From NCBI RefSeq assembly GCF_988242995.1, contig NZ_OZ547043.1: a stretch of DNA of 64,000 nt; one strand, 5' to 3'. Made by a program: the position numbers and the translations under genes. A model generated the notes under the pieces. That model did not search any database. It was given only the letters and a program-made list of their open reading frames with translations, and had not been told where the DNA came from. This document shows positions 10,836-52,910 of the stretch, piece by piece (position 1 is the stretch's first letter; every line of letters starts with the position of its first letter).

Positions 10836-10855
10836 AAAGCCTCCTAGGAGGCTTT
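10836..10855. terminator. Bidirectional intrinsic terminator between convergent genes
   Basis: Perfect palindrome aaagcctcctaggaggcttt flanked by T-runs on both strands; overlaps MTase stop codon. Confidence 0.6.
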
Positions 10856-11884: not shown

Positions 11885-11907
11885 TTTTCCCTCTGCATCC
11901 AGAATCA

Positions 11908-25080: not shown

Positions 25081-25082
25081 TT

Positions 25083-26489
25083 ATGGCTGATATATCAACA
25101 CCCAACCTCGACTATAACGATATGCTGGAGGCGTGGGATATTAACGACGCACTGATGGGCGGTACGCTTGAAATGCGCAGGCAGGGGGAAAATTATCTCC
25201 CAAAATGGCCTAACGAAGATGAAGACGCTTATAAAAAACGCCTGTCTGTGGCTACGCTACTTCCTGTGTATGAAGAAAGCATCAAGCAAAATATTGGGCG
25301 CATATTTGCAGAGCCGACAGTATTGAGTGAGGAAACGCCGGCAAAAATCAGGGAATATGCAGAAAATATCGACATGGAGGGGAGCCGACTGGATGTGTGG
25401 GCGCAGCAATTTTTCAGCCTCGCATTTCAGTATGGTGTGGCACATGCGCTGGTGGACTATCCACGAACGGATATGAAAGAGATTCGGACAAAAGCCGATG
25501 AAAACGCGACCGGTGGTCGTCCGTACGTTACGATGCTGAATCCACGCCAGGTTATTGGATGGAAATCGAAAGTTGAAAAAGGGAAAGTTGTTCTCACTGA
25601 TTTGCGTATAAAAGAGGTCATCATTATTGATGGTGATGATTTCGGGCAGAAGAAGGTGGAGCAGATCCGCCATATTATGCCCCGTCGAGTTGAAATTTAT
25701 CGACGTAGCGAAGGCACTAATGGCGAATCTGTCTGGACGCTTCATGAGTCATGGAATACCAGCCGTGATGATATTCCTCTGGTAACACTGTACACGAAGA
25801 AAACAGGATTTATGCGTGGTACACCGCCATTGCTTAATCTTGGCTTGCTGAATATCAAGCACTGGCAAAGCCAGAGCGAGCAGGACAATATTCTTCATGT
25901 TGCCCGCGTTCCATTGCTGGTGGCCTACGGGCTGGACAGGAATGAAGAACTGACGGTTGGTGCATCCACCGCTACGATTTTTGAGGACAGAACAAAAAAT
26001 GGCCTCGAATATGTTGAACATAGTGGCGCAGCGATAGAATCTGGCGAAACATCACTTGAGAAGCTGGAAAATCAGATGCGTCATGCCGGCGCTAAACTTC
26101 TGCGTGCTGAAAATACATCCACCAAATCTGTTGATCAGACTAATGAAGAGCGAATGCAGGAAAACTCGCCGCTTTATACAATGGCGAACTCCCTCGAAGA
26201 TGCTCTCGATAATATTCTCCAGATAATGGCGGAATGGATCGGAGAGAGTTGCGGTGGCAATGTGGATGTGCGCACTGAACTGGATGTATCTGCCCAGGTG
26301 TTTGACTCATCCTCCGCGCTGGCTGTTCAGTCATTGCGTCAGGGCGGTGATATACGTCAGATTGATGCGGTTCGGGTGTTGCAGGCGTTGAAATTTATCG
26401 ATCAGGATTCCCGTCCAGAGGAAGTGATCGATGAATTAAAAAATCAGAGTGTAATGCTGATGGAAATCAATGATGCAAACCGTGAATGA
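25083..26489 (+). CDS. Portal protein (putative)
   Basis: 468-aa ORF immediately after terminase large subunit. Confidence 0.55.
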   Translation: MADISTPNLDYNDMLEAWDINDALMGGTLEMRRQGENYLPKWPNEDEDAYKKRLSVATLLPVYEESIKQNIGRIFAEPTVLSEETPAKIREYAENIDMEGSRLDVWAQQFFSLAFQYGVAHALVDYPRTDMKEIRTKADENATGGRPYVTMLNPRQVIGWKSKVEKGKVVLTDLRIKEVIIIDGDDFGQKKVEQIRHIMPRRVEIYRRSEGTNGESVWTLHESWNTSRDDIPLVTLYTKKTGFMRGTPPLLNLGLLNIKHWQSQSEQDNILHVARVPLLVAYGLDRNEELTVGASTATIFEDRTKNGLEYVEHSGAAIESGETSLEKLENQMRHAGAKLLRAENTSTKSVDQTNEERMQENSPLYTMANSLEDALDNILQIMAEWIGESCGGNVDVRTELDVSAQVFDSSSALAVQSLRQGGDIRQIDAVRVLQALKFIDQDSRPEEVIDELKNQSVMLMEINDANRE

Positions 26490-27585
26490 ACGGCTGCGTG
26501 ATGAATCAATTGCTCATGCAGTCTGGATATCCCGCTATAGCACTGGCGTGGCTGCCAGAATGGTGAAAATACTGAATGACAGCGATGCGGAACTTACTGC
26601 TCGCCTGCTGATAGCACTGGACAGCCTCGATCCAGGTAATTTTACCGTTAAGCGCCTGGAGTCACTTCTGGCGAGCGTCAGAGAGGTTAACCGCACTGCT
26701 ATTAACAGCATGTTTACCAGTCTCTCCGGAGAGCTGAACGAGCTGGCAATTTATGAGGCTGGTTATCAGTTAAGTCTGTTTGATTCTATGCTACCTGATT
26801 TTGTTGCTGATGTTCACCCTCTGGTTGGTATCTCTCCTGATGCACTTTATGCCGCTGCAATGGCGCGACCATTCCAGGGACGACTGCTCAGTGAGTGGGC
26901 CTCAGATCTTGAGGCGGATCGGCTCAGACGCATAACAAATACAGTGCGTCAGGGTTTTTTGCTGGGGGATACCAATGAGCAGATCGCAAGAAAAATTCGG
27001 GGACATGTCAGTAAGGGATTTCAGGATGGTGCATTGCAGATGAGCCGGGCTAATGCGGCCAGCATTGCAAAAACAGCGGTTGGACATCTTGCTGCTACTG
27101 CCCGTGAGAGTTTTGCCAGCGCGAATAATGATTTGATTAAGGGTAAGCAATGGTTATCAACGCTTGATAATCGTACTACGCCACAATGTCGAATCAGGGA
27201 TCGCCTCAAATATACGCTGAATAATAAACCTGTAGGTCACAGCGTGCCTTATTTGCAGGGGCCGGGAAAAATTCATTTCTGCTGCCGCTCAACGGAAACG
27301 TTCATTCTGAAATCAGCGAAGGAACTGGGTATTGATGTTCGCGATATTTCCCCGGCTGAGCGGGCCAGCATGGATGGCGTGGTGGCCGGAGATACAACCT
27401 ACAGGGAATGGTTTTTGCGTCAGCCTTACACCAGACAAAAACAGATTGTGGGGGAAACCCGAGCAAAGCTGATTCGGGATGGTGGTATGTCGCCAGATGA
27501 ATTTTACACCGATAAAGGCGAATGGCTGACGCTGAAGCAGCTCCGTGAGCGTGATGCACAGGTATTCAGAAAAGCAGGGATTTAA
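26470..27585 (+). CDS. Head morphogenesis protein (putative minor head protein)
   Basis: 371-aa ORF following portal; assignment by order and size. Confidence 0.45.
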   Translation: MMQTVNERLRDESIAHAVWISRYSTGVAARMVKILNDSDAELTARLLIALDSLDPGNFTVKRLESLLASVREVNRTAINSMFTSLSGELNELAIYEAGYQLSLFDSMLPDFVADVHPLVGISPDALYAAAMARPFQGRLLSEWASDLEADRLRRITNTVRQGFLLGDTNEQIARKIRGHVSKGFQDGALQMSRANAASIAKTAVGHLAATARESFASANNDLIKGKQWLSTLDNRTTPQCRIRDRLKYTLNNKPVGHSVPYLQGPGKIHFCCRSTETFILKSAKELGIDVRDISPAERASMDGVVAGDTTYREWFLRQPYTRQKQIVGETRAKLIRDGGMSPDEFYTDKGEWLTLKQLRERDAQVFRKAGI

Positions 27586-27604
27586 ATAAATCATTTATTA
27601 CAAC

Positions 27605-27630
27605 AGGCTACCTTCGGGTGGCCTTTTTTA
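27605..27630 (+). terminator. Intrinsic terminator-like hairpin
   Basis: aggctaccttcgggtggcct followed by ttttttatt. Confidence 0.4.
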
Positions 27631-27689
27631 TTGCTGCGATCCGGATGGTGAGCAGCGTAACTGTCGGAAGACTTAAACCAGGTACTAAT

Positions 27690-28454
27690 ATGAAACTGAA
27701 AACGGTCGAGATTAACGGAAAACAATACGCAGAAATTGATACTGCTGGCCTGCCAGTTTATGTGCACGACGATGGTAAAGAAATTGGCTTCGATGCACCG
27801 CTGGCGACAAAAAAAATTACAGAGCTTAATGGCGAGGCAAAAAATCATCGCCTGGCTAAAGAAGCTGCAGAGGAAAAACTGGCTAAGTTTGCCGCTATCG
27901 AAGACCCGAAGAAGGCGATCGAGGCACTGGAAATGCTGTCAAAAATCGACCAGAAAAAGCTGCTCGATGCGGGACAGGTTGACCAGGTTAAGGCAGAAAT
28001 TACGAAAAATTTTCAGCAGCAATTAGATGAAGAAAAGCAACGCTCTCAGATGCTGGAGAAGCAGCTTTACGATTCTATGATTGGCGGTAGTTTTGCGGGT
28101 TCAAAATATATTGCCGATAAAATTGCGATCCCGGCAGATTTATTACAAGCCCGCTTCGGGCAGGCATTCAAAGTGGAAGAAGGGAGGATCGTTGCTTATG
28201 ACGCTTCCGGCAACAAAATTTATTCCCGCGCGAAGCCTGGCGAACTGGCGCAGTTTGATGAGGCGCTGGAGTTCCTTGTCGAAAATTACCCTCAGAAAGA
28301 CTACATCCTGAAAGCCAGTGGCAACAATGGCGGCGGCTCCCGTCCGACACAGCATGATATTGGTCAGAAAACGATGAAACGCTCTGCTTTTGATGCACTG
28401 GATGTTGCAGGTAAGCAAAACGCATTGAAAGACGGTATCACAATCGTTGATTAA
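27690..28454 (+). CDS. Scaffolding protein (putative)
   Basis: Acidic, coiled-coil-like sequence immediately upstream of capsid gene; start taken at MKLKTV; ORF track begins 27618. Confidence 0.45.
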   Translation: MKLKTVEINGKQYAEIDTAGLPVYVHDDGKEIGFDAPLATKKITELNGEAKNHRLAKEAAEEKLAKFAAIEDPKKAIEALEMLSKIDQKKLLDAGQVDQVKAEITKNFQQQLDEEKQRSQMLEKQLYDSMIGGSFAGSKYIADKIAIPADLLQARFGQAFKVEEGRIVAYDASGNKIYSRAKPGELAQFDEALEFLVENYPQKDYILKASGNNGGGSRPTQHDIGQKTMKRSAFDALDVAGKQNALKDGITIVD

Positions 28455-28552
28455 CACATTTGTCAGCTTCCGGATGGGAGCTGGTGTCAGGGCTGGATAG
28501 CTCATTACTCCATCTATTCACAATTACGCAAATTTTTAAGGAATATTTAATT

Positions 28553-29692
28553 ATGGCTGGAAATACCCTGACCGGGTTGATCCCGACTATTTATACCGCC
28601 CTGGATGTTGTATCCCGTGAGCAGGTAGGTTTTATCCCTGCGGTAGCAAAAAACGCAAAAGCTGACGCCGCAGCAAAAGATCAGACGGTAACCGCGCCAG
28701 TTGCGCCTGAGGCGAAAACCGAAGATATCGTACCGGGGCCGTCAGCTCCGAATACCGGTGATCAAAATATTGGCACTGTTGATGTAAAAATTACTAAATC
28801 CAAAATGGCACCGGTTAAATGGAATGGTGAAGAACAACTGGCTCTTGGCCCTTCAGGGACTTACAACACCATTCTGGCTGATCAGTTCAAGCAGGCTTTT
28901 CGCGCCCTTGCAAACGAGGTTGAGGCTGATCTTGGTGCGTTGTATTTCGGTGCTTCCCGCGCCGTGGGAACCGCAGGGACAACGCCGTTTGGTGTTAAAG
29001 ATGATCTTTCTGATGCTGCTCTGGCTCGTCAGGTTCTGGAGGATAACGGCGCACCGACAACCGATCTGCAGATGGTGCTTGGCTCCACTGCCATTGCTAA
29101 TTTGCGCGGAAAACAGTCTGTATTGTTTAAAGTGAATGAATCCGGCACTGAACAGCTACTGCGTGAGGGCGTGTTGGGGCGTCTGGAGGGATTCAATATT
29201 CACAGTTCGGCAGGTGTGAAACGAGCGCCAAAGGTTGCTGCAACTGGTTATCTCGTGAATGGAGAGAAAAAAGAAGGCGATGTTCTTATTTCCATTGATA
29301 CTGGTTCGGGGAGTATTTCTGCAGGTCAGATTGTTACGTTCGCTGGTGATCCGAATCAGTATGTTGTGGCAGCAGCGACCAGCAATCTGATTACTCTTGC
29401 AGCGCCCGGACTGCGTCAGGATCTGGCCGATGATACTGCCATCACAGTTGTTGGGGCCTTTACTGCAAATATGGCGTTTGATCGCAACGCGTTTCTGCTG
29501 GCATCCCGTACTCCGGCAATGCCGGAAGGTGGCGATAATGCTGATGATGTAATGAATGTTACGGACCCGATTTCAGGGATTACGTTCCAGATTGCACTGT
29601 ATCGTCAGTATCGCCAGGTGCGCTATGAAGTTGGACTGGCATGGGGTGTTTCATCAGTGAAGCCGGCACATGGTTGTCTGATTCTTGGTTAA
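28553..29692 (+). CDS. Major capsid protein (putative)
   Basis: 379 aa from MAGNTLTGLIPTIYTAL... with AAGGAA SD; followed by a strong terminator. Confidence 0.6.
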   Translation: MAGNTLTGLIPTIYTALDVVSREQVGFIPAVAKNAKADAAAKDQTVTAPVAPEAKTEDIVPGPSAPNTGDQNIGTVDVKITKSKMAPVKWNGEEQLALGPSGTYNTILADQFKQAFRALANEVEADLGALYFGASRAVGTAGTTPFGVKDDLSDAALARQVLEDNGAPTTDLQMVLGSTAIANLRGKQSVLFKVNESGTEQLLREGVLGRLEGFNIHSSAGVKRAPKVAATGYLVNGEKKEGDVLISIDTGSGSISAGQIVTFAGDPNQYVVAAATSNLITLAAPGLRQDLADDTAITVVGAFTANMAFDRNAFLLASRTPAMPEGGDNADDVMNVTDPISGITFQIALYRQYRQVRYEVGLAWGVSSVKPAHGCLILG

Positions 29693-39045: not shown

Positions 39046-42000
39046 ATGGGTAAAGGCAGCAGTAAGGGGCATACCCCGCGCGAAGCGAAGGACAACCTGA
39101 AGTCCACGCAGCTGCTGAGTGTGATCGATGCCATCAGCGAAGGGCCGGTTGAAGGTCCGGTGGATGGATTAAAAAGCGTGCTGCTGAACAGTACGCCGGT
39201 GCTGGACAGTGAGGGGAATACCAATATATCCGGCGTCACGGTGGTGTTCCGGGCCGGTGAGCAGGAGCAGACTCCGCCGGAGGGATTTGAATCCTCCGGT
39301 TCCGAGACGGTGCTGGGTACGGAAGTGAAATATGACACGCCGATCACCCGCACCATCACGTCGGCAAACATCGACCGTCTGCGCTTTACCTTCGGTGTGC
39401 AGGCACTGGTGGAAACCACCTCAAAGGGGGACAGGAATCCATCGGAAGTCCGCCTGCTGGTTCAGATACAACGTAACGGTGGCTGGGTGACGGAAAAAGA
39501 CATCACCATTAAGGGTAAAACCACCTCGCAGTATCTGGCCTCAGTGGTGGTGGATAACCTGCCGCCGCGCCCGTTTAATATCCGGATGCGCAGGATGACG
39601 CCGGACAGCACCACAGACCAGCTGCAGAACAAAACGCTCTGGTCGTCATACACCGAAATCATCGATGTGAAACAGTGCTACCCGAACACGGCACTGGTCG
39701 GCGTGCAGGTGGACTCGGAGCAGTTCGGCAGCCAGCAGGTGAGCCGTAATTATCATCTGCGCGGGCGTATTCTGCAGGTGCCGTCGAACTATAACCCGCA
39801 GACGCGGCAATACAGCGGTATCTGGGACGGGACGTTTAAACCGGCATACAGCAACAACATGGCCTGGTGTCTGTGGGATATGCTGACCCATCCGCGCTAC
39901 GGCATGGGGAAGCGTCTCGGTGCGGCGGATGTGGACAAATGGGCGCTGTATGTCATCGGCCAGAATTGCGACCAGTCGGTGCCGGATGGCTTTGGTGGCA
40001 CGGAGCCTCGCATCACCTGTAATGCCTGGCTGACCACGCAGCGCAAGGCGTGGGATGTGCTCAGTGATTTCTGCTCGGCGATGCGCTGTATGCCGGTATG
40101 GAACGGGCAGACGCTGACGTTCGTGCAGGACCGGCCATCGGATAAGGTGTGGACCTATAACCGCAGTAATGTGGTGATGCCGGATGATGGCGCGCCGTTC
40201 CGCTACAGCTTCAGCGCCCTGAAGGACCGTCATAATGCCGTTGAGGTGAACTGGATTGACCCGAATAACGGCTGGGAGACGGCGACAGAGCTTGTGGAGG
40301 ACACGCAGGCCATTGCCCGTTACGGTCGTAACGTCACGAAGATGGATGCCTTTGGCTGTACCAGCCGGGGGCAGGCACACCGCGCCGGGCTGTGGCTGAT
40401 TAAAACAGAACTGCTGGAAACGCAGACCGTGGATTTCAGCGTCGGCGCAGAAGGGCTTCGCCATGTACCGGGTGATGTTATTGAAATCTGCGATGATGAC
40501 TATGCGGGGATCAGCATTGGCGGGCGCGTGCTGGCGGTGAACAGCCAGACCCGGACGCTGACGCTCGACCGTGAAATCACGCTGCCATCCTCCGGTACCA
40601 CGCTGATAAGCCTGGTTGACGGGCAGGGGAGTCCGGTCAGCGTGGAGGTTCAGTCCGTCACCGACGGCGTGAAGGTGAAAGTGAGTCGGGTTCCTGACGG
40701 CGTTGCCGGATACAGCGTGTGGGGGCTGAAGCTGCCGACGCTGCGCCAGCGCCTGTTCCGCTGTGTGAGTATCCGTGAGAACGATGACGGCACGTATGCC
40801 ATCACTGCCGTGCAGCATGTACCGGAAAAAGAAGCCATCGTGGATAACGGGGCGCACTTTGACGGCGACCAGAGCGGCACGGTGAATGGTGTCACGCCGC
40901 CAGCGGTGCAGCACCTGACCGCCGAAGTCACCGCAGACAGCGGGGAATACCAGGTGCTGGCGCGCTGGGATACGCCGAAGGTGGTGAAGGGCGTGAGCTT
41001 TATGCTTCGCCTGACCGTGGCAGCGGATGACGGCAGTGAGCGGCTGGTCAGCACGGCCCGGACGACGGAAACCACATACCGCTTCAGGCAGCTGGCTCTG
41101 GGAAATTACAGTCTGACAGTCCGGGCGGTAAATGCGTGGGGGCAGCAGGGCGATCCGGCGTCGGTATCGTTCCGGATTGCCGCACCGGCAGCGCCATCGC
41201 GGATTGAGCTGACGCCGGGCTATTTTCAGATAACCGCCACGCCGCATCTTGCGGTTTATGATCCGACGGTACAGTTTGAGTTCTGGTTCTCGGAAAATCG
41301 GATTGCGGATATCAGGCAGGTTGAAACCAGCGCGCGTTATCTTGGCACGGCGCTGTACTGGATAGCCGCCAGTATCAATATCAAACCGGGCCATGATTAT
41401 TATTTTTACGTTCGCAGTGTGAACACCGTCGGCAAATCGACATTCGTGGAGGCTGTCGGTCGGGCGAGCGATGATGCGGAAGGTTACCTGGATTTTTTCA
41501 AAGGCAAGATAACCGAATCTCATCTCGGCAAGGAGTTGCTGGAAAAAGTCGACCTGACGGAGGATAACGCCAGCAGACTGGATGAGTTTTCGAAAGAGTG
41601 GAAGGATGCCAACGATAAATGGAATGCCATGTGGGCTGTCAAAATTGAGCAGACCAAAGACGGCAAACATTATGTCGCGGGTATTGGCCTCAGCATGGAG
41701 GATACAGAGGAAGGCAAACTGAGTCAGTTTCTGGTTGCCGCCAATCGTATCGCGTTTATTGACCCGGCAAACGGGAATGAAACGCCGATGTTTGTGGCGC
41801 AGGGCAATCAGATATTCATGAACGAAGTGTTCCTGAAATATCTGACGGCTCCCACCATTACCAGCGGCGGTAATCCTCCGGCATTTTCCCTGACACCGGA
41901 CGGGCGGCTGACGGCGAAAAATGCCGATATCAGCGGTAACGTGAATGCGAACTCCGGGACGCTCAACAACGTCACGATTAACGAGAACTGCCGGGTTCTG

Positions 42001-42441
42001 GGAAAACTGTCCGCGAACCAGATTGAAGGCGATCTCGTTAAAACAGTGGGCAAAGCTTTCCCCCGTGACTCCCGGGCACCGGAGCGGTGGCCATCAGGGA
42101 CCATTACCGTCAGGGTTTATGACGATCAGCCGTTTGACCGGCAAATTGTTATTCCGGCGGTGGCATTCAGTGGCGCTAAGCATGAGAGAGAGCATACTGA
42201 TATTTACTCCTCATGCCGTCTGATAGTGCGGAAAAACGGTGCTGAAATTTATAACCGTACCGCGCTGGATAATACGCTGATTTACAGTGGCGTTATTGAT
42301 ATGCCTGCCGGTCACGGTCACATGACACTGGAGTTTTCGGTGTCAGCATGGCTGGTAAATGGCTGGTATCCCACAGCAAGTATCAGCGATTTGCTGGTTG
42401 TTGTGATGAAGAAAGCCACTGCAGGCATCACGATTAGCTGA
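39046..42441 (+). CDS. J: Central tail fibre / host specificity protein J
   Basis: 1131-aa [40 protein letters not shown]... matches lambda J. Confidence 0.95.
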
Positions 42442-42508
42442 ATTTTATAACCCAGATACGGGCACCAGAAATGGTGCCTTTTTTATTGCAGAAAAGCGAG
42501 AGGTAATT

Positions 42509-43108
42509 ATGCGTAAATTATGTGCTGTTATTCTGTCCGCAGTAGTCTGGCTGGTTGCCGCTGGTACGCCAGCGAGCGCAGCAGAGCATCAGTCCACACT
42601 AAGCGCCGGGTATCTTCAGACCCATACTGATATGCCAGGCAGTGATGACCTGAAGGGCATTAACGTGAAATACCGTTATGAATTTACGGACATGCTGGGG
42701 CTGGTGACGTCATTCAGTTATGCCAATGCCAAAGATGAGCAAAGAACGCATTACAGCGATACCCGCTGGCATGAAGATTCAGTGCGTAACCGCTGGTTCA
42801 GCATGATGGCGGGGCCATCTGTACGCGTGAATGAATGGTTCAGTGCTTATGCGATGGCAGGTGTGGCTTACAGCCGTGTTTCGACGTTCTCCGGGGATTA
42901 TCTCCGCGTAACTGACAACAAGGGGAAAACGCACGATGTGCTGACCGGAAGTGATGACGATCGCCACAGCAACACGTCTCTGGCGTGGGGAGCTGGCGTG
43001 CAGTTTAACCCGACCGAATCCGTGGCCATTGATATTGCTTATGAAGGCTCCGGCAGTGGCGACTGGCGCACTGACGGTTTCATCGTGGGTGTCGGTTATA
43101 AGTTCTGA
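42509..43108 (+). CDS. lom: Lom-family outer membrane protein (Ail/Lom)
   Basis: 199-aa ORF with signal peptide; near-identical to lambda Lom from memory. Confidence 0.9.
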   Translation: MRKLCAVILSAVVWLVAAGTPASAAEHQSTLSAGYLQTHTDMPGSDDLKGINVKYRYEFTDMLGLVTSFSYANAKDEQRTHYSDTRWHEDSVRNRWFSMMAGPSVRVNEWFSAYAMAGVAYSRVSTFSGDYLRVTDNKGKTHDVLTGSDDDRHSNTSLAWGAGVQFNPTESVAIDIAYEGSGSGDWRTDGFIVGVGYKF

Positions 43109-43166
43109 TTAGCCAGGTAACACAGTGTTATGACAGCCCGCCGGTTCAGGCGGGCTTTTTTGTGGA

Positions 43167-45530
43167 GTGGATATGGCAGCAGTAAAAATCTCAGGTGTGC
43201 TGAAAGATGGTGCGGGAAAACCAATACAGAACTGCACTATTCAACTGAAGGCAAAGCGTAACAGCACCACGGTACTGGTGAACACGGTGGCCTCTGAAAA
43301 TCCGGATGAAGCCGGGCGTTACAGCATGGATGTTGAGTATGGTCAGTACAGCGTCACCCTGCTGGTTGAAGGTTTTCCGCCTTCACATGCCGGGACCATT
43401 ACCGTCTATGAAGGTTCCAGACCAGGTACGCTGAATGATTTTCTCGGTGCCATGACGGAAGATGATGTCATGCCGGAGGCATTGCGTCGTTTTGAGGCAA
43501 TGGTGGAAGAAGCGGCACGCAACGCCGAAGCCGCCTCTCAGAGCGCAGCAGCGGCAAAGAAATCCGAAACTGCAGCGGCATCATCGAAGAACGCGGCGAA
43601 AACCTCAGAAACAAATGCAGCTAACAGCGCACAGGCGGCAGCGTCCTCGCAGACTGCATCGGCAAACTCCGCGACAGCAGCCAAAAAATCAGAAACCAAC
43701 GCGAAAAATAGCGAGACAGCCGCAAAGACGAGCGAAACCAACGCAAAGTCCAGCCAGACGGCAGCGAAAACAAGCGAAACGAATGCCAAAGCCAGTGAAA
43801 CTGCGGCAAAAAACAGCCAGGTTGCAGCAGCCCAAAGCGAGAGCGCGGCAGCCGGTTCTGCGACTTCAGCAGCTGGATCAGCAACTGCTGCGGCTAACAG
43901 CCAGAAAGCTGCGAAGACGAGTGAAACTAACGCAAAGTCCAGCCAGACGGCAGCGAAGACCAGCGAAACGAATGCCAAAGCCAGCGAAACTGCGGCGAAA
44001 AACAGTCAGGATGCAGCAGCCCAAAGCGAGAGTGCTGCAGCTGGTTCTGCCACTGCATCAGCCAACAGTCAAAAAGCAGCAAAAACCAGTGAAACCAATG
44101 CAAAGACAAGCGAGACTGCAGCGGCGAACTCGGCGAAAGCATCCGCTGCAAGCCAGACCGCTGCAAAAGCAAGTGAAGACGCAGCCAGAGAGTATGCAAG
44201 CCAGGCAGCAGATCCGTATAAATATGTCTTACAGCCGCTGCCTGATGTGTGGATACCGTTTAACGATTCACTGGATATGATTACGGGCTTTTCGCCATCA
44301 TATAAAAAGATTGTTATTGGTGACGACGAAATAACGATGCCTGGCGACAAGATTGTTAAGTTTAAACGTGCATCGAAAGCAACCTATATTAACAAATCTG
44401 GTGTGTTGACAGAGGCTGCCATTGATGAGCCACGATTTGAACGTGATGGCCTGCTTATTGAGGGGCAAAGAACTAATCTTCTGCTTAATTCAACAAATCC
44501 ATCTAAATGGAATAAGTCAGGCAATCTGGAACTCACAGAAATATCCACGGATTCTTTTAATTTTACTTATGGGAGATTTACTGTAAAAGATACTCTTATT
44601 GGTCAGACAAGTGCTATTAATATCGTAACGATTTCTGGCAGTAAAGGGTTTGATGTCACAGGTGATGAAAAATATGTGACCATTTCATGCCGTGTAAGAA
44701 GTGATGTTGAAAATATAAGGTGTCGTTTAAGATTTGAACACCATGATGGTTATACTTACACTTTTTTGGGAGATGCTTACCTCAATTTATCAACACTTGT
44801 AATTGATAAAACTGGTACTGCTGCAGACCGTATTATTGCAAAGGCTGTAAAAGATGAGGTTACTGGTTGGATTTTCTATCAGGCTACAATTAATGCACTA
44901 GATACAGAGAGCATGATTGGTGCGATGGTTCAATACGCTCCTGTAAAAGGTTCAGGTACAGCATCTGGAGACTATCTGGATATCGCAACTCCACAAGTGG
45001 AAGGTGGATCAAGTGCTTCGTCATTTATTGTAACTGATATAACTGCAAGCACTCGCGCAAGCGATATGGTGACAGTCCCAATCAAGAATAACCTTTATAA
45101 TCTTCCTTTTACGGTTCTTTGTGAGGTACATAAGAACTGGTATAAAACGCCAAATGCAGCACCGCGTGTTTTTGATACCGGCGGTCATCAAACCGGAGCG
45201 GCTATTATTCTTGGCTTCGGTCGTTCAACAGATTACGACGGATTTCCTTATTGTGATATAGGTTTGGCTAACAGACGGGTAAACGAAAACGCATCGCTTG
45301 AAAAAATGGTTATGGGGATGCGTGTAAAGTCAGATCAGTCTACGTGCTCAGTAAGTAACGGGCGTATATCCAGCGAAAAGAAAGCCACATGGTCCTATAT
45401 TCAGAACTCCGCAATTATCCGTATTGGAGGCCAGACTACAGCCGGGTTGCGTCATTTATTTGGTCATGTCAGGAATTTCAGAATATGGCACAAGGCATTG
45501 ACTGATGCTCAGATGGGGGAGTCAATCTAA
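43167..45530 (+). CDS. stf: Side tail fibre protein (Stf-like) with Ala/Ser/Thr-rich repeats and distinct C-terminal domain
   Basis: N-terminus MAAVKISGVLKDGAGKPIQNCTIQLKAKRNSTT... as lambda Stf; C-terminal third is visibly AT-rich and ends with a motif I read as LamG-like (RNFRIWHKALTDAQ). Confidence 0.85.
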   Translation: MDMAAVKISGVLKDGAGKPIQNCTIQLKAKRNSTTVLVNTVASENPDEAGRYSMDVEYGQYSVTLLVEGFPPSHAGTITVYEGSRPGTLNDFLGAMTEDDVMPEALRRFEAMVEEAARNAEAASQSAAAAKKSETAAASSKNAAKTSETNAANSAQAAASSQTASANSATAAKKSETNAKNSETAAKTSETNAKSSQTAAKTSETNAKASETAAKNSQVAAAQSESAAAGSATSAAGSATAAANSQKAAKTSETNAKSSQTAAKTSETNAKASETAAKNSQDAAAQSESAAAGSATASANSQKAAKTSETNAKTSETAAANSAKASAASQTAAKASEDAAREYASQAADPYKYVLQPLPDVWIPFNDSLDMITGFSPSYKKIVIGDDEITMPGDKIVKFKRASKATYINKSGVLTEAAIDEPRFERDGLLIEGQRTNLLLNSTNPSKWNKSGNLELTEISTDSFNFTYGRFTVKDTLIGQTSAINIVTISGSKGFDVTGDEKYVTISCRVRSDVENIRCRLRFEHHDGYTYTFLGDAYLNLSTLVIDKTGTAADRIIAKAVKDEVTGWIFYQATINALDTESMIGAMVQYAPVKGSGTASGDYLDIATPQVEGGSSASSFIVTDITASTRASDMVTVPIKNNLYNLPFTVLCEVHKNWYKTPNAAPRVFDTGGHQTGAAIILGFGRSTDYDGFPYCDIGLANRRVNENASLEKMVMGMRVKSDQSTCSVSNGRISSEKKATWSYIQNSAIIRIGGQTTAGLRHLFGHVRNFRIWHKALTDAQMGESI
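43722..44100 (+). repeat. Imperfect tandem duplication (about 189-bp unit, 2 copies) inside stf
   Basis: Units beginning near 43722 and 43911 encode KTSETNAKSSQTAAKTSETNAKASETAAKNSQ.AAAQSESAAAGSAT; boundaries approximate. Confidence 0.7.
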
Positions 45531-45811
45531 TGAAAGATTTAACACTCAAATTTGCAGACAGGGCCGACTTTTCGGCCTTTATGGATAGCATTGGCTATTA
45601 TGATGACGAGTCGATGCAGGATGATATTCTTATTGACGTGATAGGTAACGTGTACAAAGAAACCGGAGAACTGACTGAAGATGGCGAACCGGTATGTGTT
45701 AAGGAAGACGGATATTTTGTAAACGTGCGCATCATTAATGATGCAAAAAAATCGTCAATATTCGATGAATACGCGGTTGTAGTTGAACATCAACTTCGTG
45801 GCTGGATGTGA
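45530..45811 (+). CDS. Hypothetical protein (93 aa) downstream of stf
   Basis: ORF with start overlapping stf stop; acidic. Confidence 0.45.
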   Translation: MKDLTLKFADRADFSAFMDSIGYYDDESMQDDILIDVIGNVYKETGELTEDGEPVCVKEDGYFVNVRIINDAKKSSIFDEYAVVVEHQLRGWM

Positions 45812-45820
45812 GGGAGACAA

Positions 45821-46525
45821 ATGGCTACATCGACAGTAATTCCAGGAGACATCACCACGTTAAAGGGAGATGTCAGTAAAGCCAAGGAAGATATTTCCTC
45901 AATTAACGGAAAAGTATCAACGCTTCAGGCTGATATGACCAGTGCAAAGCAGGATATCAGCACCAGATACACAAAAACTGAAGTTGATAATAAGCTGAAA
46001 AACAAACTGGAAGTGAACGCTCTGGAAAGCGGTCGTTATGGTGGAGATTTTTACCCGTTGACTGGCCGTGAAGCGTTTTATTTGTGGGGATTGGGCACGA
46101 CTACAGCGGCGGCAAACCTTTATCTTAATCCTGACCCCGCAATTTCGTCTGTGCTGCGGTCAACATCGTCTATCCGCTATAAACATTCAGTAGAGACAAT
46201 AGATTCAGAGCACGCCGAACTCATTTTCAGGATGCGCCCTGTGTGGTACAGGTCACAATGCGAAAATGACAGGCGTGACTGGGGATTCTACGGATTGATT
46301 GCCGAGGAAGTAGGAGAAATTGCCCCTCAGTTTGTACACTGGCGACCAGCTAACGAAGATGATGCACCGGAAGCTATTTCCAGCAATGGCCTTGTTGCCG
46401 AAGGTGTAATGTACGAACGTCTGGTTGTTCCACTGATTCACCATATCCAGAAGCTGACTGAAAGAGTTGATGAACTTGAGTCAGAATTAAAGTTGTTATC
46501 CGTTTCCCGAAGCGATATCGGATAA
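45821..46525 (+). CDS. Tail-fibre-associated protein with coiled-coil N-terminus and possible intramolecular-chaperone-like C-terminus
   Basis: 234-aa ORF; N-terminal heptad-like repeats; C-terminal region SSIRYKHSVETID...WGFYGLIAEEV reminiscent of tail-spike chaperone domains (from memory, unverified). Confidence 0.45.
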   Translation: MATSTVIPGDITTLKGDVSKAKEDISSINGKVSTLQADMTSAKQDISTRYTKTEVDNKLKNKLEVNALESGRYGGDFYPLTGREAFYLWGLGTTTAAANLYLNPDPAISSVLRSTSSIRYKHSVETIDSEHAELIFRMRPVWYRSQCENDRRDWGFYGLIAEEVGEIAPQFVHWRPANEDDAPEAISSNGLVAEGVMYERLVVPLIHHIQKLTERVDELESELKLLSVSRSDIG

Positions 46526-46535
46526 AGGAGGAGTA

Positions 46536-46829
46536 ATGGATATAACACCTTTCCTTCATGCGCTTTGTGCTGTGGCTGCGCAGCTACTGATTGGTCTTTT
46601 TACCGGGAACTGGGCTTACGGGGCGATAGCCGGTTGTACGTTCTTCATTGCGCGTGAACACACCCAGGCAGAATATCGCTGGATCGAAATGTTCGGGCAT
46701 GGCAAGCGAATGAATATGCCGTGGTGGGGCGGTTTTGATCCGCGCGCGTGGGATGTGGCAAGCCTGATGGATTTTGCTGTGCCGGTGGTGGCGTGTCTGC
46801 TGGTCTGGCTGTTGGTTAATCGTGGGTGA
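46536..46829 (+). CDS. Hypothetical membrane protein (97 aa)
   Basis: ORF with AGGAGG SD; two hydrophobic segments. Confidence 0.45.
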   Translation: MDITPFLHALCAVAAQLLIGLFTGNWAYGAIAGCTFFIAREHTQAEYRWIEMFGHGKRMNMPWWGGFDPRAWDVASLMDFAVPVVACLLVWLLVNRG

Positions 46830-46839
46830 AAAAAGGTGA

Positions 46840-46968
46840 GCTGTATATGCAACGGAGGAAGAAACCCCGTTGCTGGAAGCCTGGAAAAAGTATCGGATGC
46901 TGCTGAACCGTGTTGATACATCAACTGCACCTGATATTGAGTGGCCTACGAACCCTGTCAGGGAGTAA
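46840..46968 (+). pseudogene. tfa: Remnant of tail fibre assembly gene tfa (C-terminal about 40 codons only)
   Basis: Translation ...[37 protein letters not shown] matches the conserved C-terminus of lambda Tfa; no upstream ORF in frame. Confidence 0.75.
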
Positions 46969-47180
46969 TCATTGGGATTATGCCGCAGAAACGTTGTATG
47001 CAATAACGTTCTGCGGTTGGCTGATGCACTTTCGAGAGTGCATGTATTGAATTATTTCCAGCTATTATCGATTTTACGTATTTTTTGCATGAGAGAATTT
47101 GTACCTCCTCCCAACAACGACCTTCCATGACTTTCCGGACTTCTGTGGGCCAGCGGACGATGCTGCCCTCGGATGTTGTG

Positions 47181-48038
47181 CTAATTGGGTGATGACAAAT
47201 CCTGTGTATGGGTGTTTCCCTTTGTGCGTGCGTTGATGCTGGTAACGGTGAACGTCATGATGAACACAACCGCGAATAAGACGACAATCGTCGGAGCTGG
47301 TGCACTGTCGATAAAAAAGGACAACCAGACACCAGTCATTGACACTATTACCGATATGCCAATCGCCAGTAGGAGCGCAATATGAAAGCGTTGTGTCAGG
47401 AGTACCGCAATGGCGCCAGGCGCAATGAGCAGAGAAATGGAGAGAATGATACCTACCGCTTTCAGCGTCGCCACAATGGTCAGAGAGACCATGCACAGCA
47501 GCCCATAATGCAGACATCTCGTATGCAAACCGCTTACCTGCGCCTGTTGATAATCAAAGCTGAACAGCAAAAAATCCCGCCATTTTACGCTAATAACAAG
47601 TGTAACCAGCCCGGCAATAATCACCGTCTGGATTATATCGCCGATGGTTACCCCGAGCATGTCGCCGAAAAGAATATGGTCAAGATGTACGTCTGGTTTG
47701 ACTGCAATATACAAGATCAGACCTGCGGCAAACATGCCAGAAAAAACAATCCCCATCACTGTATCTTGCTTGATTCGGCTGTTGTCTTTCAGGTATCCCG
47801 TCGCCACCGCGCAGAATACTCCGGCGACGAATGCCCCTGTAGCCAGAGGTAACCCCAGAATCCAGGCAAGCACGATGCCAGGAAAAACCGCATGACTCAT
47901 CGCGTCACCCATCAGTGCCCAACCTTTCAGGACCAGAAAGACCGACAGCAGCGCACAGGGTATGGAAACTACCAGTGAAATCAGCAGTGCGTGACTCATA
48001 AAGGTGAACTGCAGTGGCTCCAGTAATAATGCCATCAT
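47181..48038 (-). CDS. sitD: Mn/Fe ABC transporter permease SitD
   Basis: 285-aa polytopic membrane ORF, last gene of a four-gene metal ABC operon. Confidence 0.85.
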   Translation of the reverse strand: MMALLLEPLQFTFMSHALLISLVVSIPCALLSVFLVLKGWALMGDAMSHAVFPGIVLAWILGLPLATGAFVAGVFCAVATGYLKDNSRIKQDTVMGIVFSGMFAAGLILYIAVKPDVHLDHILFGDMLGVTIGDIIQTVIIAGLVTLVISVKWRDFLLFSFDYQQAQVSGLHTRCLHYGLLCMVSLTIVATLKAVGIILSISLLIAPGAIAVLLTQRFHIALLLAIGISVIVSMTGVWLSFFIDSAPAPTIVVLFAVVFIMTFTVTSINARTKGNTHTQDLSSPN

Positions 48039-48892
48039 GAGCGATCCTCCAGCGCTTTATGCGCACGCCGACGATTTGCCAAAAGCCCATGGGTGGGCGC
48101 AAATACAAATGCTAAAAGAAACAGCAGTGTCTGCGCCACCACGATGATTCCACCTGTCGCGCCGTCCAGAAAGTAACTGACCCACGCGCCGAGGAAACTG
48201 GTTACACTGCCAATAGTTACAGCAATTATGAGCAGGCGGGGAAAACGATCGGTTAACAACCATGCTGTTGCACCGGGAGTCACCACCAGACAGATCACCA
48301 GAAAGGCACCAACCGTTTGCAGCGCCGCAACGGTCGAAACCGACAGCAGGGTGAAGAAGAGGATTTTTAATCTGCCCGGATGCAATCCAATAGCACGAGC
48401 GTGATTCTCGTCGAAAAAGGTCACCATAAGATCTTTCCATTTGAAAAAAAGCACGATGATCGAGAGAATGCCAATGATAGTGAGTTGCAGGATATCCGCC
48501 GGATCGATTGCCAGAATATTGCCCAGGACGATGGTCTGAATGTTCACGGATGTCGGGTTCAATGACACCATAAACAGCCCCAGGCCAAAAAAGGAGGAGA
48601 AGATCAGGCCGATGATGGCATCTTCTTTTAAGCGAGTGCGTTGGTTAAGAAACAGCATGCTGCCCGCTGCCAGTCCGCCGGAAAAGAAGGCTCCCAGAGA
48701 AAACGGAAGCCCCAGCATATATGCCCCCGCAACACCCGGGACAATAGAGTGCGACAGCGCATCGCCAATCAGCGACCAGCCTTTTAGCATCAGATAGCAT
48801 GACAGGAAAGCGCAGAGACCGCCGACCATCGCCGAGACCCACATCGCATTGAGCATATATTCATAGCTGAAGGGTTCCAGTAGCACGTTCAT
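48035..48892 (-). CDS. sitC: Mn/Fe ABC transporter permease SitC
   Basis: 285-aa membrane ORF paralogous to the downstream permease. Confidence 0.85.
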
Positions 48893-49716
48893 CTTGCTTC
48901 CCCCTGCACCGCTGACGGTCGATGTGCCACAAAAGGGTGTTCATCGTCAGTAATAATGCTTTCTTCCGAGCCGTTAAGTGTGACATGGCGCAGTACGCCG
49001 CTAAAAGCCAGCTCCAGGTTCTCGGCTGTAAAAGTGGTGTCTGTCGGCCCGCTTGCCAGGACGGTGCCTTTGACCATGACCGTATAATCGCAAAATGTCG
49101 TGACTGAGCCGAGATTGTGCGTTGAGACAAGCATCGTCTTGCCTTCCGCGCGTAACTCCCTCAACAGGCTGATGATTTTCGCTTCGGTTTTCACATCAAC
49201 GCCCGTAAAAGGTTCATCCAGCAGGATCACATCACCCTGCTGTGCAATCGCTCTCGCCAGAAAGACGCGTTTCTTTTGTCCACCGGAAAGCTCGCCGATT
49301 TGTCGATGGCGAAAATCCACCATATCGACACGTTCCAGCGCATCGGTGACAATCTGACGATCCCTCTTTTTGGCTATACGCAACATACCCATGTGCCCAT
49401 AGCGGCCCATCATCACCACATCTTCCACTAGTACAGGAAATGACCAGTCAACCTCTTCTGACTGAGGGACGTAGGCAACCAGGTTTTTCTGTAGCGCCTG
49501 TCGCGTGGGAATACCCAGAACAGATATCTTTCCGCTGGTCAGACGCACAAATCCCATAATCGCTTTAAACAACGTCGATTTTCCGGAACCGTTTACCCCA
49601 ACCAGAGCGGCAATAGATCCACTTGGTACTGTGAAGGATGCATCGCGCAGTGCTGTGTGCCCGTTACGCCAGGTGACAGTAACATCATTAACGACAATGC
49701 CCGCAGATTGCATCAT
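48889..49716 (-). CDS. sitB: Mn/Fe ABC transporter ATP-binding protein SitB
   Basis: Walker [13 protein letters not shown] signature LSGGQKKR, Walker [12 protein letters not shown]. Confidence 0.9.
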
Positions 49717-50630
49717 TATTTCTCCCTTTTCCCGGCTTTAATTCCCTGTACCAGCGTACTGGTAGTAACCTTCAGAAGGTCGATATACGTAGGTACCGGG
49801 CCGTTTTCTGTGCTCAGGGAATCGACATAGAGTACACCGCCGTAGTGCGCGCCGGTTTCACGCGCAACCTGACGCGCTGGTTTATCGGAAATCGTACTCT
49901 CGCTAAAGACTGCCGGGATATGATTTTTCTTCACCATATCAACAACCTTACGTACCTGCTGCGGCGTGCCTTGTTGATCGGCATTAATCGGCCACAGATA
50001 AAGCTCTTTTAGCCCCAAATCGCGTGCGAGATAAGAAAAAGCCCCTTCACTGGTGACCATCCATCGCTGATTCTCAGGGAGTTCAGCAATCTGCTTACGC
50101 AGGGGGGCAAGGGTTTGGGTAATCTTGGCTTTATAAGTATCGGCATTACGTTGGTAGGTTTGTGCATTTGCCGGATCGTATTTTATCAACGCATCACGAA
50201 TATTATCGACGTAAATCAGAGCATTATCTGGCGACATCCAGGCATGGGGGTTAGGTTTGCCCTCATAGGGGCCTTCAGTGATCCCTACTGGCGTCACACC
50301 CGAAGAGACAATTACTTCTGGAACCCCATTAAGATGCTGGTAAAAGCGTTGGAACCACAATTCCAGATTCATACCATTGGCGAGAATCAGTTGTGCCCCC
50401 TGCGCACGTTTAATATCGCCAGGGGTAGGCTGATACTCATGAATTTCTGCACCGGGCTTGGTTATGGATGAGACTTCTGCAGCATCTCCAGCCACGTTTT
50501 TGGCCATATCTGCGATGATGGTAAATGTTGTAATGACCTTGAATTTTTCAGTTGCACTCGCCTGAAATGCGATCGAGCAGGTGAGGGCGAGGCACCCCAA
50601 GAGCATGGTTACTTTTTTTATTGAGTACAT
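49716..50630 (-). CDS. sitA: Periplasmic Mn/Fe-binding protein SitA
   Basis: 304-aa ORF with signal peptide; metal-binding SBP family; first gene of operon. Confidence 0.85.
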
Positions 50631-50663
50631 AATTTAGTACCTATAGTGAGCAAAATTAGAACA

Positions 50664-50683
50664 AACATAGCAACGGCTATGTT
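50664..50683. promoter_or_regulatory. MntR operator-like palindrome upstream of sitA
   Basis: AACATAGCaacgGCTATGTT, the same palindrome type as the mntH MntR box as I recall. Confidence 0.6.
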
Positions 50684-50706
50684 TTATAGCACAACCTATA
50701 CAAAAT

Positions 50707-50725
50707 GAAAATGATTATCATTAGC
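50707..50725. promoter_or_regulatory. Fur box upstream of sitA
   Basis: GAAAATGATTATCATTAGC matches 16 of 19 positions of the Fur consensus GATAATGATAATCATTATC. Confidence 0.65.
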
Positions 50726-51216
50726 AGCTTTGGGGCCCAAAACAGGGATTAGGTTGTTTCCTGCTGGCGACGCGTTATTGAGGAAAAAAGTAAGGCAGCT
50801 AGTAGGCTTTGAAATGACTTGATGAGGAAAATTGTTGATGGCAAAAATGGGGCAAAGCGCTGCAAAAGGGGCAAAAAAGGGGCAAAAAAAGAGTGGGTTA
50901 TCGTAGCTTATTGTTGTCGCTGATGATATTTAACACATTGAAAAATAAGTAAAATACTTATGAGTCAGAGAGTTGTGATTTTTGCCCTTACTTGTTCAGG
51001 TTGTATTGTTCTTTCTTACTAAATTCTTGATTTTGCGACATTTAAAAGCGACTCAATTCGTTATATGGCATCAGAAGAGTATGCGTCATGCCGGAACGCC
51101 CAGCATAAGAAATCTGATATAAAAACTGTGGCGTGTATGGTACGGATTAGAGGGGAAAATGTCAGCACATTTGCGAAATGAATCAAAAAGCCCGCAGGAA
51201 TGTGCGGGCGTTAGTG

Positions 51217-51732
<516 letters not shown>

Positions 51733-51791
51733 TTAGATCAAAGGAGGAAGAATAAGCAGAAAAAGCCCGCCATAACAGCGGGCAGGAGGAT

Positions 51792-52910
51792 TTAGAACTG
51801 ATAAACCAGACCTAAAGCGACAATATCATCGGTAGAGATGCCGTTGGCAGCGTAGAAGCTGTCATCTTCATCCAACAGGTTGATTTTATAGTCAACATAA
51901 GTGGACATGTTTTTATTGAAATAGTAAGTCGCGCCAACATCGGCGTATTTAACCAGATCTTTATCACCGTCGGTACCGACCAAATCCTTGCCTTTAGACA
52001 TCAGGAAAGAGACTGCCGGACGCAGCCCAAAATCGAACTGATACTGCGCAGTAACTTCAAAGTTCTGGGTTTTGTTGGCAATCGTATTTGTTGAATCACC
52101 GTAAGGTGTCATGTTACGCGTTTCAGAATACATGGTCGCCAGGTAGATATTGTTAGCATCGTATTTTGCCCCGGCAGTCCAGGCATCTGCCTTATCGCCT
52201 TTTGCGGTAGAGAATTCAGCCTGCTGGTTAGTGCGATCGGAACTGGTATAGGCGGCACCAAAACTCATGCCCATACCTAAGTCGTAGGTAGTAGAGATGC
52301 CAAGACCGTCGCCATTGGCGTTCTTAATGTTTCGATCACCACCGTTTGCGGTACCTTCTTGCTCATGGGTGACCTGGTTTTCATTCGCACCCTGGTACTG
52401 TAACGCAAAATTCAGACCATCAACCAGACCGAAGAAATCAGTATTACGATAGGTTGCTACGCCATTGGCTCGACCGGTCATATAGTTATCGGCTTTGGTA
52501 TAAGAGTCACCACCGAATTCCGGTAGCATATCGGTCCAGCCTTCGATGTCGTACATTACGCCATAATTACGACCATAGTCGAATGAACCCAGGTCACCAA
52601 ATTTCAGACCGGCAAAAGCAAGACGAGTCCAGGAATCACCTTTATCACCTTCAGAGCCATTAGCCTGCACGTTATATTCCCACTGGCCATACCCAACCAG
52701 TTGATCCGTGATTTGCGTTTCACCCTTAAAACCAAAACGCACATAAGTTTGATCACCATCACTATTGGTATTATCAGAAAAATAATGCAGGCCATCAACT
52801 TTGCCATACAGATCTAATTTGTTGCCGTCTTTATTATAAACTTCGGCTGCATGTGCAGCACCTGCGGCGAGCAGGGCAGGAATTAAAAGTGCCAGTACTT
52901 TGCTTTTCAT
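51792..52910 (-). CDS. ompN: Outer membrane porin OmpN
   Basis: Signal peptide [21 protein letters not shown], porin beta-barrel ending ...VYQF; K-12 order uspF-ompN. Confidence 0.9.

Follow-up and report, generated by a model that had tools for sequence, protein, structure and literature searches.

The closest described systems to the locus analysed here are the two-part lateral tail fibres of the T5-like phages IrisVonRoten (Bas32 gp22-gp23-gp24) and FGS017 (gp189-188-187) and, at the level of concept, the branched, L-shaped LtfA/LtfB fibres of DT57C. AlphaFold analysis of IrisVonRoten gp22 has indicated that a galectin-like domain projects from the C-terminal end of the proximal fibre, which bears a distal fibre with an intramolecular chaperone (PMC11990801). 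In DT57C a tail-bound proximal fibre likewise bears a second fibre (Golomidova 2016, PMC4728585; Ayala 2023, PMC10713586), and an S74-type C-terminal domain is common to that system and the present locus. The locus considered here lies at positions 43167-46968 of a 64,000-nucleotide (nt) window of contig NZ_OZ547043.1 (NCBI RefSeq assembly GCF_988242995.1), at the right-hand end of a lambdoid prophage's late operon; it comprises, all on the plus strand, a stf-like gene for a proximal ('trunk') side tail fibre, three smaller open reading frames (ORFs), orf93, orf234 and orf97, and a 3' remnant of tfa. We consider it likely that what this region encodes is not a damaged stf-tfa pair but a side tail fibre, complete and of two components, belonging to a phage-21-like lambdoid prophage.

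The trunk proteins of IrisVonRoten, where gp22 is the T5-like orthologue, and of FGS017 belong to the same family, phrog_1419, as the window Stf, amino acids (aa) 4-787 of which align with profile positions 1-793 of 793, i.e. over the full length (1466 bits). In both T5-like phages the trunk gene is followed by one for a small phrog_1361 protein, 37-41% identical in aa sequence to orf93, and the gene order, overlapping stop and start codons, N-terminal motif of the distal fibre and C-terminal intramolecular chaperone are also the same as in the window. All the sequence-testable features of the phrog_1419/phrog_1361 two-part module, i.e. the trunk, the 92-93-aa protein and the distal N-terminal motif, are thus present. 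By contrast, the T5-like loci directly follow the LtfC collar gene and have T5 Ltf-type attachment regions, whereas the attachment domain and stem in the window are lambda-type (PF08400); the distal fibre is a 234-aa mini-fibre, compared with a T-shaped fibre of ~575 aa with two receptor-binding domains; and orf97 and the tfa scar are additional. The likeness to DT57C does not extend to the docking sequences. The N terminus of DT57C LtfB resembles phiEco32 gp15, and a strict LtfA/LtfB type of docking was ruled out for the window by sequence comparison, orf234 being unlike phiEco32 gp15 and Stf unlike gp14; DT57C also appears to lack a small gene between ltfA and ltfB, as judged from consecutive gene numbers (PMC10713586) and not from sequence. 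Among fibres of this known and widespread kind the locus is a lambdoid example, and in that respect is ordinary, being already annotated in hundreds of genomes.

The predicted distal fibre gene, orf234 (45821-46525), encodes an N-terminal plug, a coiled-coil-like segment, a small tip and a Peptidase_S74 domain. The plug (45821-45865; aa 1-15) has the motif MxTxTxIPxDIxxLK. In an alignment of six distal-fibre proteins (orf234 and those of IdasGreatGrand, Tritos, FGS017, IrisVonRoten and KarlJaspers), nine positions within aa 1-15 (M1, T3, T5, I7, P8, D10, I11, L14 and K15) are invariant, and the same holds for S116 and K121, where the S74 domain starts. This domain begins at 46166 (aa 116-234) and matches PF13884 above the cut-off (27.0 bits versus 22), with aa 116-172 spanning profile positions 1-57 of 58. 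The S116/K121 pair fits a Ser nucleophile with a Lys five residues downstream, the i/i+5 Ser-Lys spacing being that of the S74 dyad in K1F endosialidase. As in endosialidase and T5 pb1, an S74 domain works in cis, on the polypeptide whose C terminus it forms. The first-pass annotation of the region had assigned this protein a possible chaperone-like C terminus, which is borne out, the chaperone being of the intramolecular (cis) type; the coiled-coil N terminus that it also proposed corresponds to weak coiled-coil-type matches (LPP zipper; P22 gp26 needle) over aa 16-65.

Homologues of orf234 form a family with a native size of ~220-270 aa in Escherichia coli prophages and T1-like phages, so orf234 is not a truncated gene. 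It matches phrog_6921, the top hit of that family being LtfB of DT571/2, and aa 109-222 match the C terminus of LtfA (PDB 8hqz_d; whole-sequence E=1.3e-6). The orf234 allele (45870-46530) is also found at 95% identity in NZ_CP053594 (T7Express, a BL21-type strain); common expression hosts carry the gene in a resident prophage.

Phage 21 (OL657228) has the same layout as the window: J, a stf with a C-terminal domain of the same family (overall identity 51%), genes for proteins of 92 aa and 97 aa, the latter a membrane protein with 96% identity, a partial tfa scar and sitDCBA. By contrast, phage 21 has neither lom nor an S74 distal fibre gene, its stem is shorter (stf of 686 aa) and it retains less of the tfa scar. 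Gene content and alignment accordingly identify the window as a prophage similar to phage 21, but with a longer stem, with lom present and with a distal fibre added. The presence in phage 21 of the trunk, the 92-aa protein and the orf97 homologue without an S74 gene implies that the trunk is independent of the distal fibre. In the T1-like (Drexlerviridae) phage KarlJaspers, gp37-gp36-gp35 correspond to the trunk C-domain (47% identity), the small protein (53%) and a 225-aa S74 protein (62%), but the N-terminal attachment region is T1-type and both orf97 and the tfa scar are lacking. Lambda (as Ur-lambda) has in common with the window the Stf N-terminal domain, the Ala/Ser/Thr stem, the position after J and lom, and the last 40 codons of tfa. 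The lambda/T4 gp37-type C-terminal tip is, however, absent from the window, where BLASTP similarity to lambda Stf orf-401 ends at aa ~275-340; compared with lambda the window fibre is two-part, self-chaperoned and without a functional Tfa. Phage mEp460 was considered as an intermediate and ruled out, since its single stf, of 1,202 aa, belongs to another type.

A further version of the module was observed in a P2-like prophage on an ENA metagenome contig, where the trunk C-domain is joined to a gpH-type N terminus. Next come an orf93 homologue of 92 aa, a distal fibre of 303 aa that contains a Gp34_trimer domain, and an entire Tfa (Caudo_TAP). This distal fibre begins MATVTTIPADITNLK, i.e. with the same N-terminal motif as orf234. 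By its gene content the P2-like locus is a Tfa-dependent version, in a myovirus, of the same two-part fibre. Comparison with the S74-type loci thus indicates that the same plug heads tips matured either by S74 in cis or by Tfa in trans.

The mosaic structure of the region is evident at the nucleotide level. Homology to lambda extends over 42981-43525 (84% identity up to 43525), with none between 43525 and 46848, and resumes over 46848-47018 (90%), a segment that takes in ~120 nt at the 3' end of tfa and 50 nt beyond it. Alignment therefore did not give the standard conserved stf-tfa arrangement without a cassette boundary that would have spoken against the first-pass annotation; there are boundaries relative to lambda at both 43525 and 46848. 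Three joints can be placed within the module. At the first (44232; Stf aa 356) the virulent T5-like Salmonella phage FGS017 becomes 91% identical in nt sequence, over exactly 44232-45553, and the 44232-45530 block has the same GC content (0.41) as the T5-like locus (0.39-0.41). The second pair of break points, 45864/46535, is defined by E. coli 042, which carries the same prophage at the same chromosomal place (J-lom-stf ... sitDCBA-uspF-ompN) and is colinear with the window at 41086-45864 (91%) and 46535-52500 (96.6%). The break points in phage Tritos are the same, so that the exchangeable distal-fibre body occupies 45865-46534, where both E. coli 042 and Tritos have an unrelated 346-aa allele. 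The third joint, at 46848, is the join to the tfa 3' end. The earlier proposal of a horizontally swapped receptor-binding cassette is supported by these boundaries, by the C-domain shared with a T5-like phage and by the reduction of tfa to 40 codons; it needs amending in that there are at least three nested exchange units rather than one, and in that the exchange is neither local nor recent.

The module is widely distributed. At least 80% of the segment 42400-47200 is present as a unit in 141 of 5,426 complete E. coli genomes, including S88 and APEC O1, the orf97/tfa' junction in at least 508 genomes, and the orf234 body in 739, i.e. ~14% of complete E. coli genomes. Plaque-forming phages carry the module at 87-93% nt identity; IdasGreatGrand has the same four genes (87% coverage), whereas Tritos, HannyBb and PhiR63_1 have the module with an alternative distal fibre. 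The locus is therefore not a one-off rearrangement, given that the whole module recurs both in 141 genomes and in isolated phages. For the trunk C-domain the ratio of nonsynonymous to synonymous substitution rates (dN/dS) is 0.14, with 0.30-0.42 obtained for orf93 and 0.27 for orf234. The orf93 start overlaps the stf stop codon (TAATG), and the gaps from orf93 to orf234 and from orf234 to orf97 are 9-10 nt, with good Shine-Dalgarno sequences before both downstream genes. As far as sequence can tell, the four genes are under purifying selection with tight translational coupling, and the module is conserved and co-transcribed. The description of the smaller ORFs as extra fibre-like genes does not hold up in this light; they are neither extras nor debris but regular partners of this fibre type, their order being conserved over four phage types and dN/dS falling at 0.14-0.42.

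The main alternative to a two-component fibre is that orf234 encodes a trans-acting folding chaperone for the Stf trunk, i.e. a replacement for Tfa that would be absent from virions. The protein is short, half of it is an S74 chaperone domain and it occupies the place expected for tfa; in addition the names given to T1-like orthologues of orf234 are 'putative lateral tail fiber chaperone' and 'chaperone of endosialidase'. However, the plug motif is common to orf234 and to genuine long distal fibres (346, 574, 581 and 303 aa) that occupy the same slot, this type of trunk occurs with orf93 but without an S74 gene in phage 21 and many lambda-like phages, and S74 domains, as a class, work in cis, so this alternative appears unlikely. 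Several observations do nevertheless weigh against the two-component assignment. The BASEL annotation of the T1-like orthologues as a 'putative lateral tail fiber chaperone' implies another role; for a receptor-binding fibre, the predicted mature tip of orf234 is uncommonly short, and instead of being hypervariable it is conserved (62% identity to KarlJaspers gp35). The AlphaFold2 (AF2) monomer model of the trunk C-terminal region is poor beyond aa 443-617, with a mean predicted local distance difference test score (pLDDT) of 54, and orf97 has homologues outside fibre loci, e.g. in an Aeromonas chromosome, so that it may not belong functionally to the fibre.

It might also be supposed that the locus is what is left of a cryptic prophage in decay, with the tfa fragment and the small ORFs as debris of illegitimate recombination and the fibre non-functional; tfa is indeed truncated, the composition is mosaic and the side fibres of lambda PaPa are dispensable in the laboratory. 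The four ORFs are, however, intact, coupled and under purifying selection, the module occurs at 87-93% nt identity in phages that form plaques, and the prophage retains its head, packaging and tail genes, and we regard decay as very improbable. Use of the cassette by a tailocin-like, headless killing particle, as had been suggested, can be given almost no weight, since the small and large terminase, portal and major head protein (together at 22704-29692) and the tape measure are encoded upstream in the same prophage and identical modules are present in complete genomes of infectious phages.

Turning to the components of the preferred, two-component fibre, the trunk gene is a 787-aa ORF (43167-45530) with a GTG start, from which the Stf residue numbers used here are counted. 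The true start is probably the ATG at 43173, giving 785 aa, as a GGAG lies at 43164-43167, 5 nt upstream of this ATG, and the RefSeq orthologue, named 'prophage tail fiber N-terminal domain-containing protein', starts at the equivalent position. Stf is a chimera, in which a lambda-type attachment domain and heptad stem are joined to a low-GC C-terminal region. The attachment domain (43179-43568; aa 5-134) matches PF08400 (E=1e-66) and a solved 94-aa 'Tail fiber protein' chain (PDB 9e7m; E=7.5e-49), and BLASTP gives 61% identity to lambda Stf across aa 5-275, in accord with the lambda-like N terminus first assigned.

The stem (43500-44228) is Ala/Ser/Thr-rich and heptad-periodic, with 245 aa between ALRRFE and QPLPDVW, and may be inferred from this pattern to form a trimeric helical shaft; its alignment with the helical region of DT57C LtfA is weak and composition-biased. 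It includes an imperfect, in-frame tandem duplication of 189 bp (63 aa) at 43710-44062, which the first-pass annotation had noted and which is recovered by Tandem Repeats Finder (period 189, 1.9 copies, 89% matches, score 580), with sub-repeats of 42 bp (14 aa). The two copies are identical at 53 of 63 residues, with seven residues missing from copy 2. Self-matches at the same offset are present in strain 3059, strain 042 and phage Tritos, while the stem of IdasGreatGrand is shorter. Stem lengths among homologues are 126, 147, 189 (the mode), 203 and 252 aa, and these, like the 245 aa here, differ from the mode by multiples of seven; a few homologues, at 180, 236 and 238 aa, break this rule. 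The pattern suggests that the heptad register has largely been retained during expansion and contraction of the repeats, and the heptad-multiple differences identify the 189-bp duplication as one allele of a stem-length polymorphism. A sequencing artefact was ruled out, the repeat being present in independent complete genomes and in phage genomes, and most stem lengths having multiple-of-seven offsets. Two alternative-frame ORFs lie in the repeat region, at 43462-44280 (plus strand, 272 aa) and 43538-43978 (minus strand, 146 aa). Both are by-products of the low-complexity repeat and not genes; lambda orf206b is a comparable repeat-derived alternative-frame ORF.

At 44232 the GC content drops from 0.539 (43167-44231) to 0.411 (44232-45530). 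The AT-richness first ascribed to the C-terminal third of Stf is real, but extends over the C-terminal 55% of the protein. Downstream the GC content is 0.408 for orf93, 0.458 for orf234 and 0.548 for orf97. The C-terminal 447 residues of Stf have 2,571 homologues, the best 120 of these 2,571 being 74-100% identical, and among homologues the C-domain is fused to lambda-type (PF08400), P2 gpH-type (PF12571/PF03406), T1-like and T5-like N termini. Three parts can be distinguished within it. The first, a near-invariant 'neck' (44232-44471; aa 356-435), has a column entropy of 0.03-0.19 bits over 78 distinct homologues, coincides with the left edge of the low-GC block and is a candidate docking or trimerization element.

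The second part, a variable β-sandwich domain (44472-45071; aa 436-635), has an entropy of 0.5-1.0 bits over the same homologues. It includes a match at aa 430-631 to NCBIfam NF048003, the head-spike-fibre domain of gene transfer agents (GTAs; 58.6 bits versus a cut-off of 36), and a profile of the trunk C-terminal region matches PDB 6tb9, the Rhodobacter RcGTA head fibre Rcc01080 (E=1.7e-12). The RcGTA head-spike fibre mediates attachment of the particle to capsular polysaccharide; residues 2-10 alone of Rcc01080 are resolved in 6tb9 (PMC7296036), so the match informs on function but not on fold. An AF2 model of the trunk C-terminal region, built from an 11-sequence alignment, is usable over aa 443-617 only, where it gives a β-sandwich (pLDDT 66-94). 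Foldseek matches of this low-confidence model in the PDB are suggestive and include the Pa193/E217 tail fibre, galectins and botulinum neurotoxin (BoNT) Hc jelly rolls, the template modelling (TM) scores for the galectins and BoNT being ~0.2. The variable domain is thus a candidate glycan-binding receptor domain, as judged from profile matches.

The third, conserved part (45072-45527; aa 636-787) ends in a ConA/LamG-like motif, RHLFGHVRNFRIWHKALTD, which is the 'LamG-like' motif of the first reading and for which the evidence is weak but consistent. Laminin_G_3 (PF13385) matches the extreme Stf C terminus below threshold (E=0.057 for the whole protein, 0.0093 for the last 86 aa). In homologues E-values of 1.6e-4 to 2.9e-4 are obtained, and four homologues score 14-22 bits against a gathering score of 27.6 at a constant C-terminal place. 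The galectin and BoNT Hc jelly-roll matches noted above also bear on this part, where the model is of low confidence.

The small gene orf93 (45530-45811), one of the ORFs seen after stf at the outset, matches phrog_1361 (E=8e-47), a narrow family that clusters at 50% into 50 representatives. A homologue lies directly 3' of the trunk gene in 9 of 9 loci, from lambdoid, T5-like, T1-like and P2-like phages and including phage 21, which has no distal fibre; orf93 thus tracks the trunk and not the distal fibre, although in most loci a distal fibre is the next gene. The AF2 model of orf93 has a pLDDT of 87.5, and a search with it returned no informative structural neighbour. It may be that orf93 is an assembly factor or a structural partner, acting together with the C-terminal region of the trunk.

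The 97-aa membrane ORF reported earlier corresponds to orf97 (46536-46829), a phrog_1443 member preceded by a strong Shine-Dalgarno sequence (AGGAGG) and encoding a small membrane protein with two hydrophobic segments, at ~aa 5-40 and 73-95. In phage 21 and many lambda-like phages a homologue directly follows that of orf93, and among the versions of the fibre module compared orf97 is confined to lambdoid ones. Searches of orf97 against Pfam and NCBIfam assigned no family, and its homologues are 575 'hypothetical' proteins. A promoter and terminator scan of 45400-47300 gave no plus-strand calls, so there is no sign of a separate moron promoter for orf97. In a Comamonas prophage a homologue follows a gpJ-like gene. 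Another, 58% identical, stands alone in the Aeromonas rivipollensis chromosome between pirin and RIO1-kinase genes; lipid A acyltransferases are close by, and phage genes are absent within 5 kb. The family is thus not limited to fibre loci, and superinfection exclusion by orf97 remains a guess in view of the inconsistent genomic context of its homologues.

The tfa 3' remnant (46846-46968) consists of the last 40 codons, without a start codon. It is identical to lambda Tfa 156-194 at 33 of 39 residues, in agreement with the original estimate of about 40 remaining codons, and its RefSeq orthologue is a tail fiber assembly protein pseudogene with the N terminus missing. Phages differ in how much of the scar they retain: it ends at 46905 in phage 21 and numerous lambda-like phages, at 46946 in Tritos and HannyBb, and at 47020 in 2G7b and PhiR49. 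It is proposed that tfa decayed to this scar, which is also the right-hand recombination joint, because no component of the fibre needs a Tfa-type chaperone; tfa would be dispensable since the C terminus of orf234 is a cis-acting chaperone domain. In one scenario an S74-type tip, together with orf97, took the place of a Tfa-dependent tip resembling that in the P2-like locus.

Combining these features, the two-component fibre might be assembled and function as follows. The trunk would trimerize, with its N-terminal domain attaching to the tail tip as in lambda, and the stem would set the reach of the fibre, to which the 63-aa duplication, given a helical stem, would add ~9 nm. A surface polysaccharide may be bound by the variable, lectin-like domain of the trunk, while the distal mini-fibre is predicted to plug, via its N-terminal motif, into the conserved trunk neck. 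The S74 domain would fold the distal-fibre trimer in cis, after which the putative Ser116/Lys121 dyad would cut at Ser116, leaving a tip of ~115 residues. Exchange of the distal-fibre body, which lies between plug and orf97, may tune host range, as may changes to the variable domain of the trunk. The orf97 product may be a lambdoid-specific membrane accessory, with superinfection exclusion as one guess at its role.

A broader proposal, to which we attach somewhat less than even weight, is that the neck (Stf aa 356-435), orf93 and the 15-residue plug constitute a plug-and-socket standard across phage families. Tips matured either by S74 in cis or by Tfa in trans would then move between temperate lambdoid or P2-like phages and virulent T1- or T5-like ones, orf93 would represent a new class of assembly or adaptor protein replacing Tfa, and orf97 would be a superinfection blocker expressed in the lysogen. 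To our knowledge neither a plug motif common to the four phage types nor roles for orf93 and orf97 have been described previously.

With respect to annotation, in a large share of E. coli prophages the side fibre would be two-part and independent of Tfa, unlike the Stf/Tfa pair of textbook lambda, the trunk being commoner than the orf234 allele. A 'tail fiber assembly protein, partial' at such loci is better annotated as a recombination scar than taken as evidence of a defective prophage. The swap points, at plug codon 15 and the orf97 start, are clean and conserved, and may serve as a design rule for re-targeting lambdoid particles, e.g. delivery vehicles, with T5-, T1- or P2-like tips. The two small conserved proteins encoded by orf93 and orf97, with putative roles in fibre assembly or lysogen protection, are modest leads and not a discovery.

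Upstream of the fibre module lie the genes for the small and large terminase, portal, major head protein and tape measure, and then J (39046-42441) and lom (42509-43108; Ail_Lom E=3e-126). A terminator-like GC hairpin with a T-run, read from sequence, lies between lom and stf at 43136-43161 (plus strand); phage mEp460 has an annotated rho-independent terminator at the equivalent place. Just past the tfa scar, within the lambda-like stretch (90% identity), is an inverted repeat, CCGCAGAAACGTT...AACGTTCTGCGG, at 46983-47018, which may be a conserved end-of-operon hairpin; a simple terminator scan gave no call there. Beyond a spacer (46968-47180), the iron/manganese transporter operon sitDCBA (47181-50630) is on the minus strand, opposite to the fibre module. 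It also follows the fibre module in phage 21 and E. coli 042, and, from this shared arrangement, looks like phage-21-type b-region cargo and not a core chromosomal operon. In the early region, at 10844-13737 (minus strand) and just upstream of ninB (14504-15103), a gene for a 354-aa DNA methyltransferase (phrog_116) adjoins one for a 609-aa protein (phrog_3940), and the two could be an early-region moron or defence pair.

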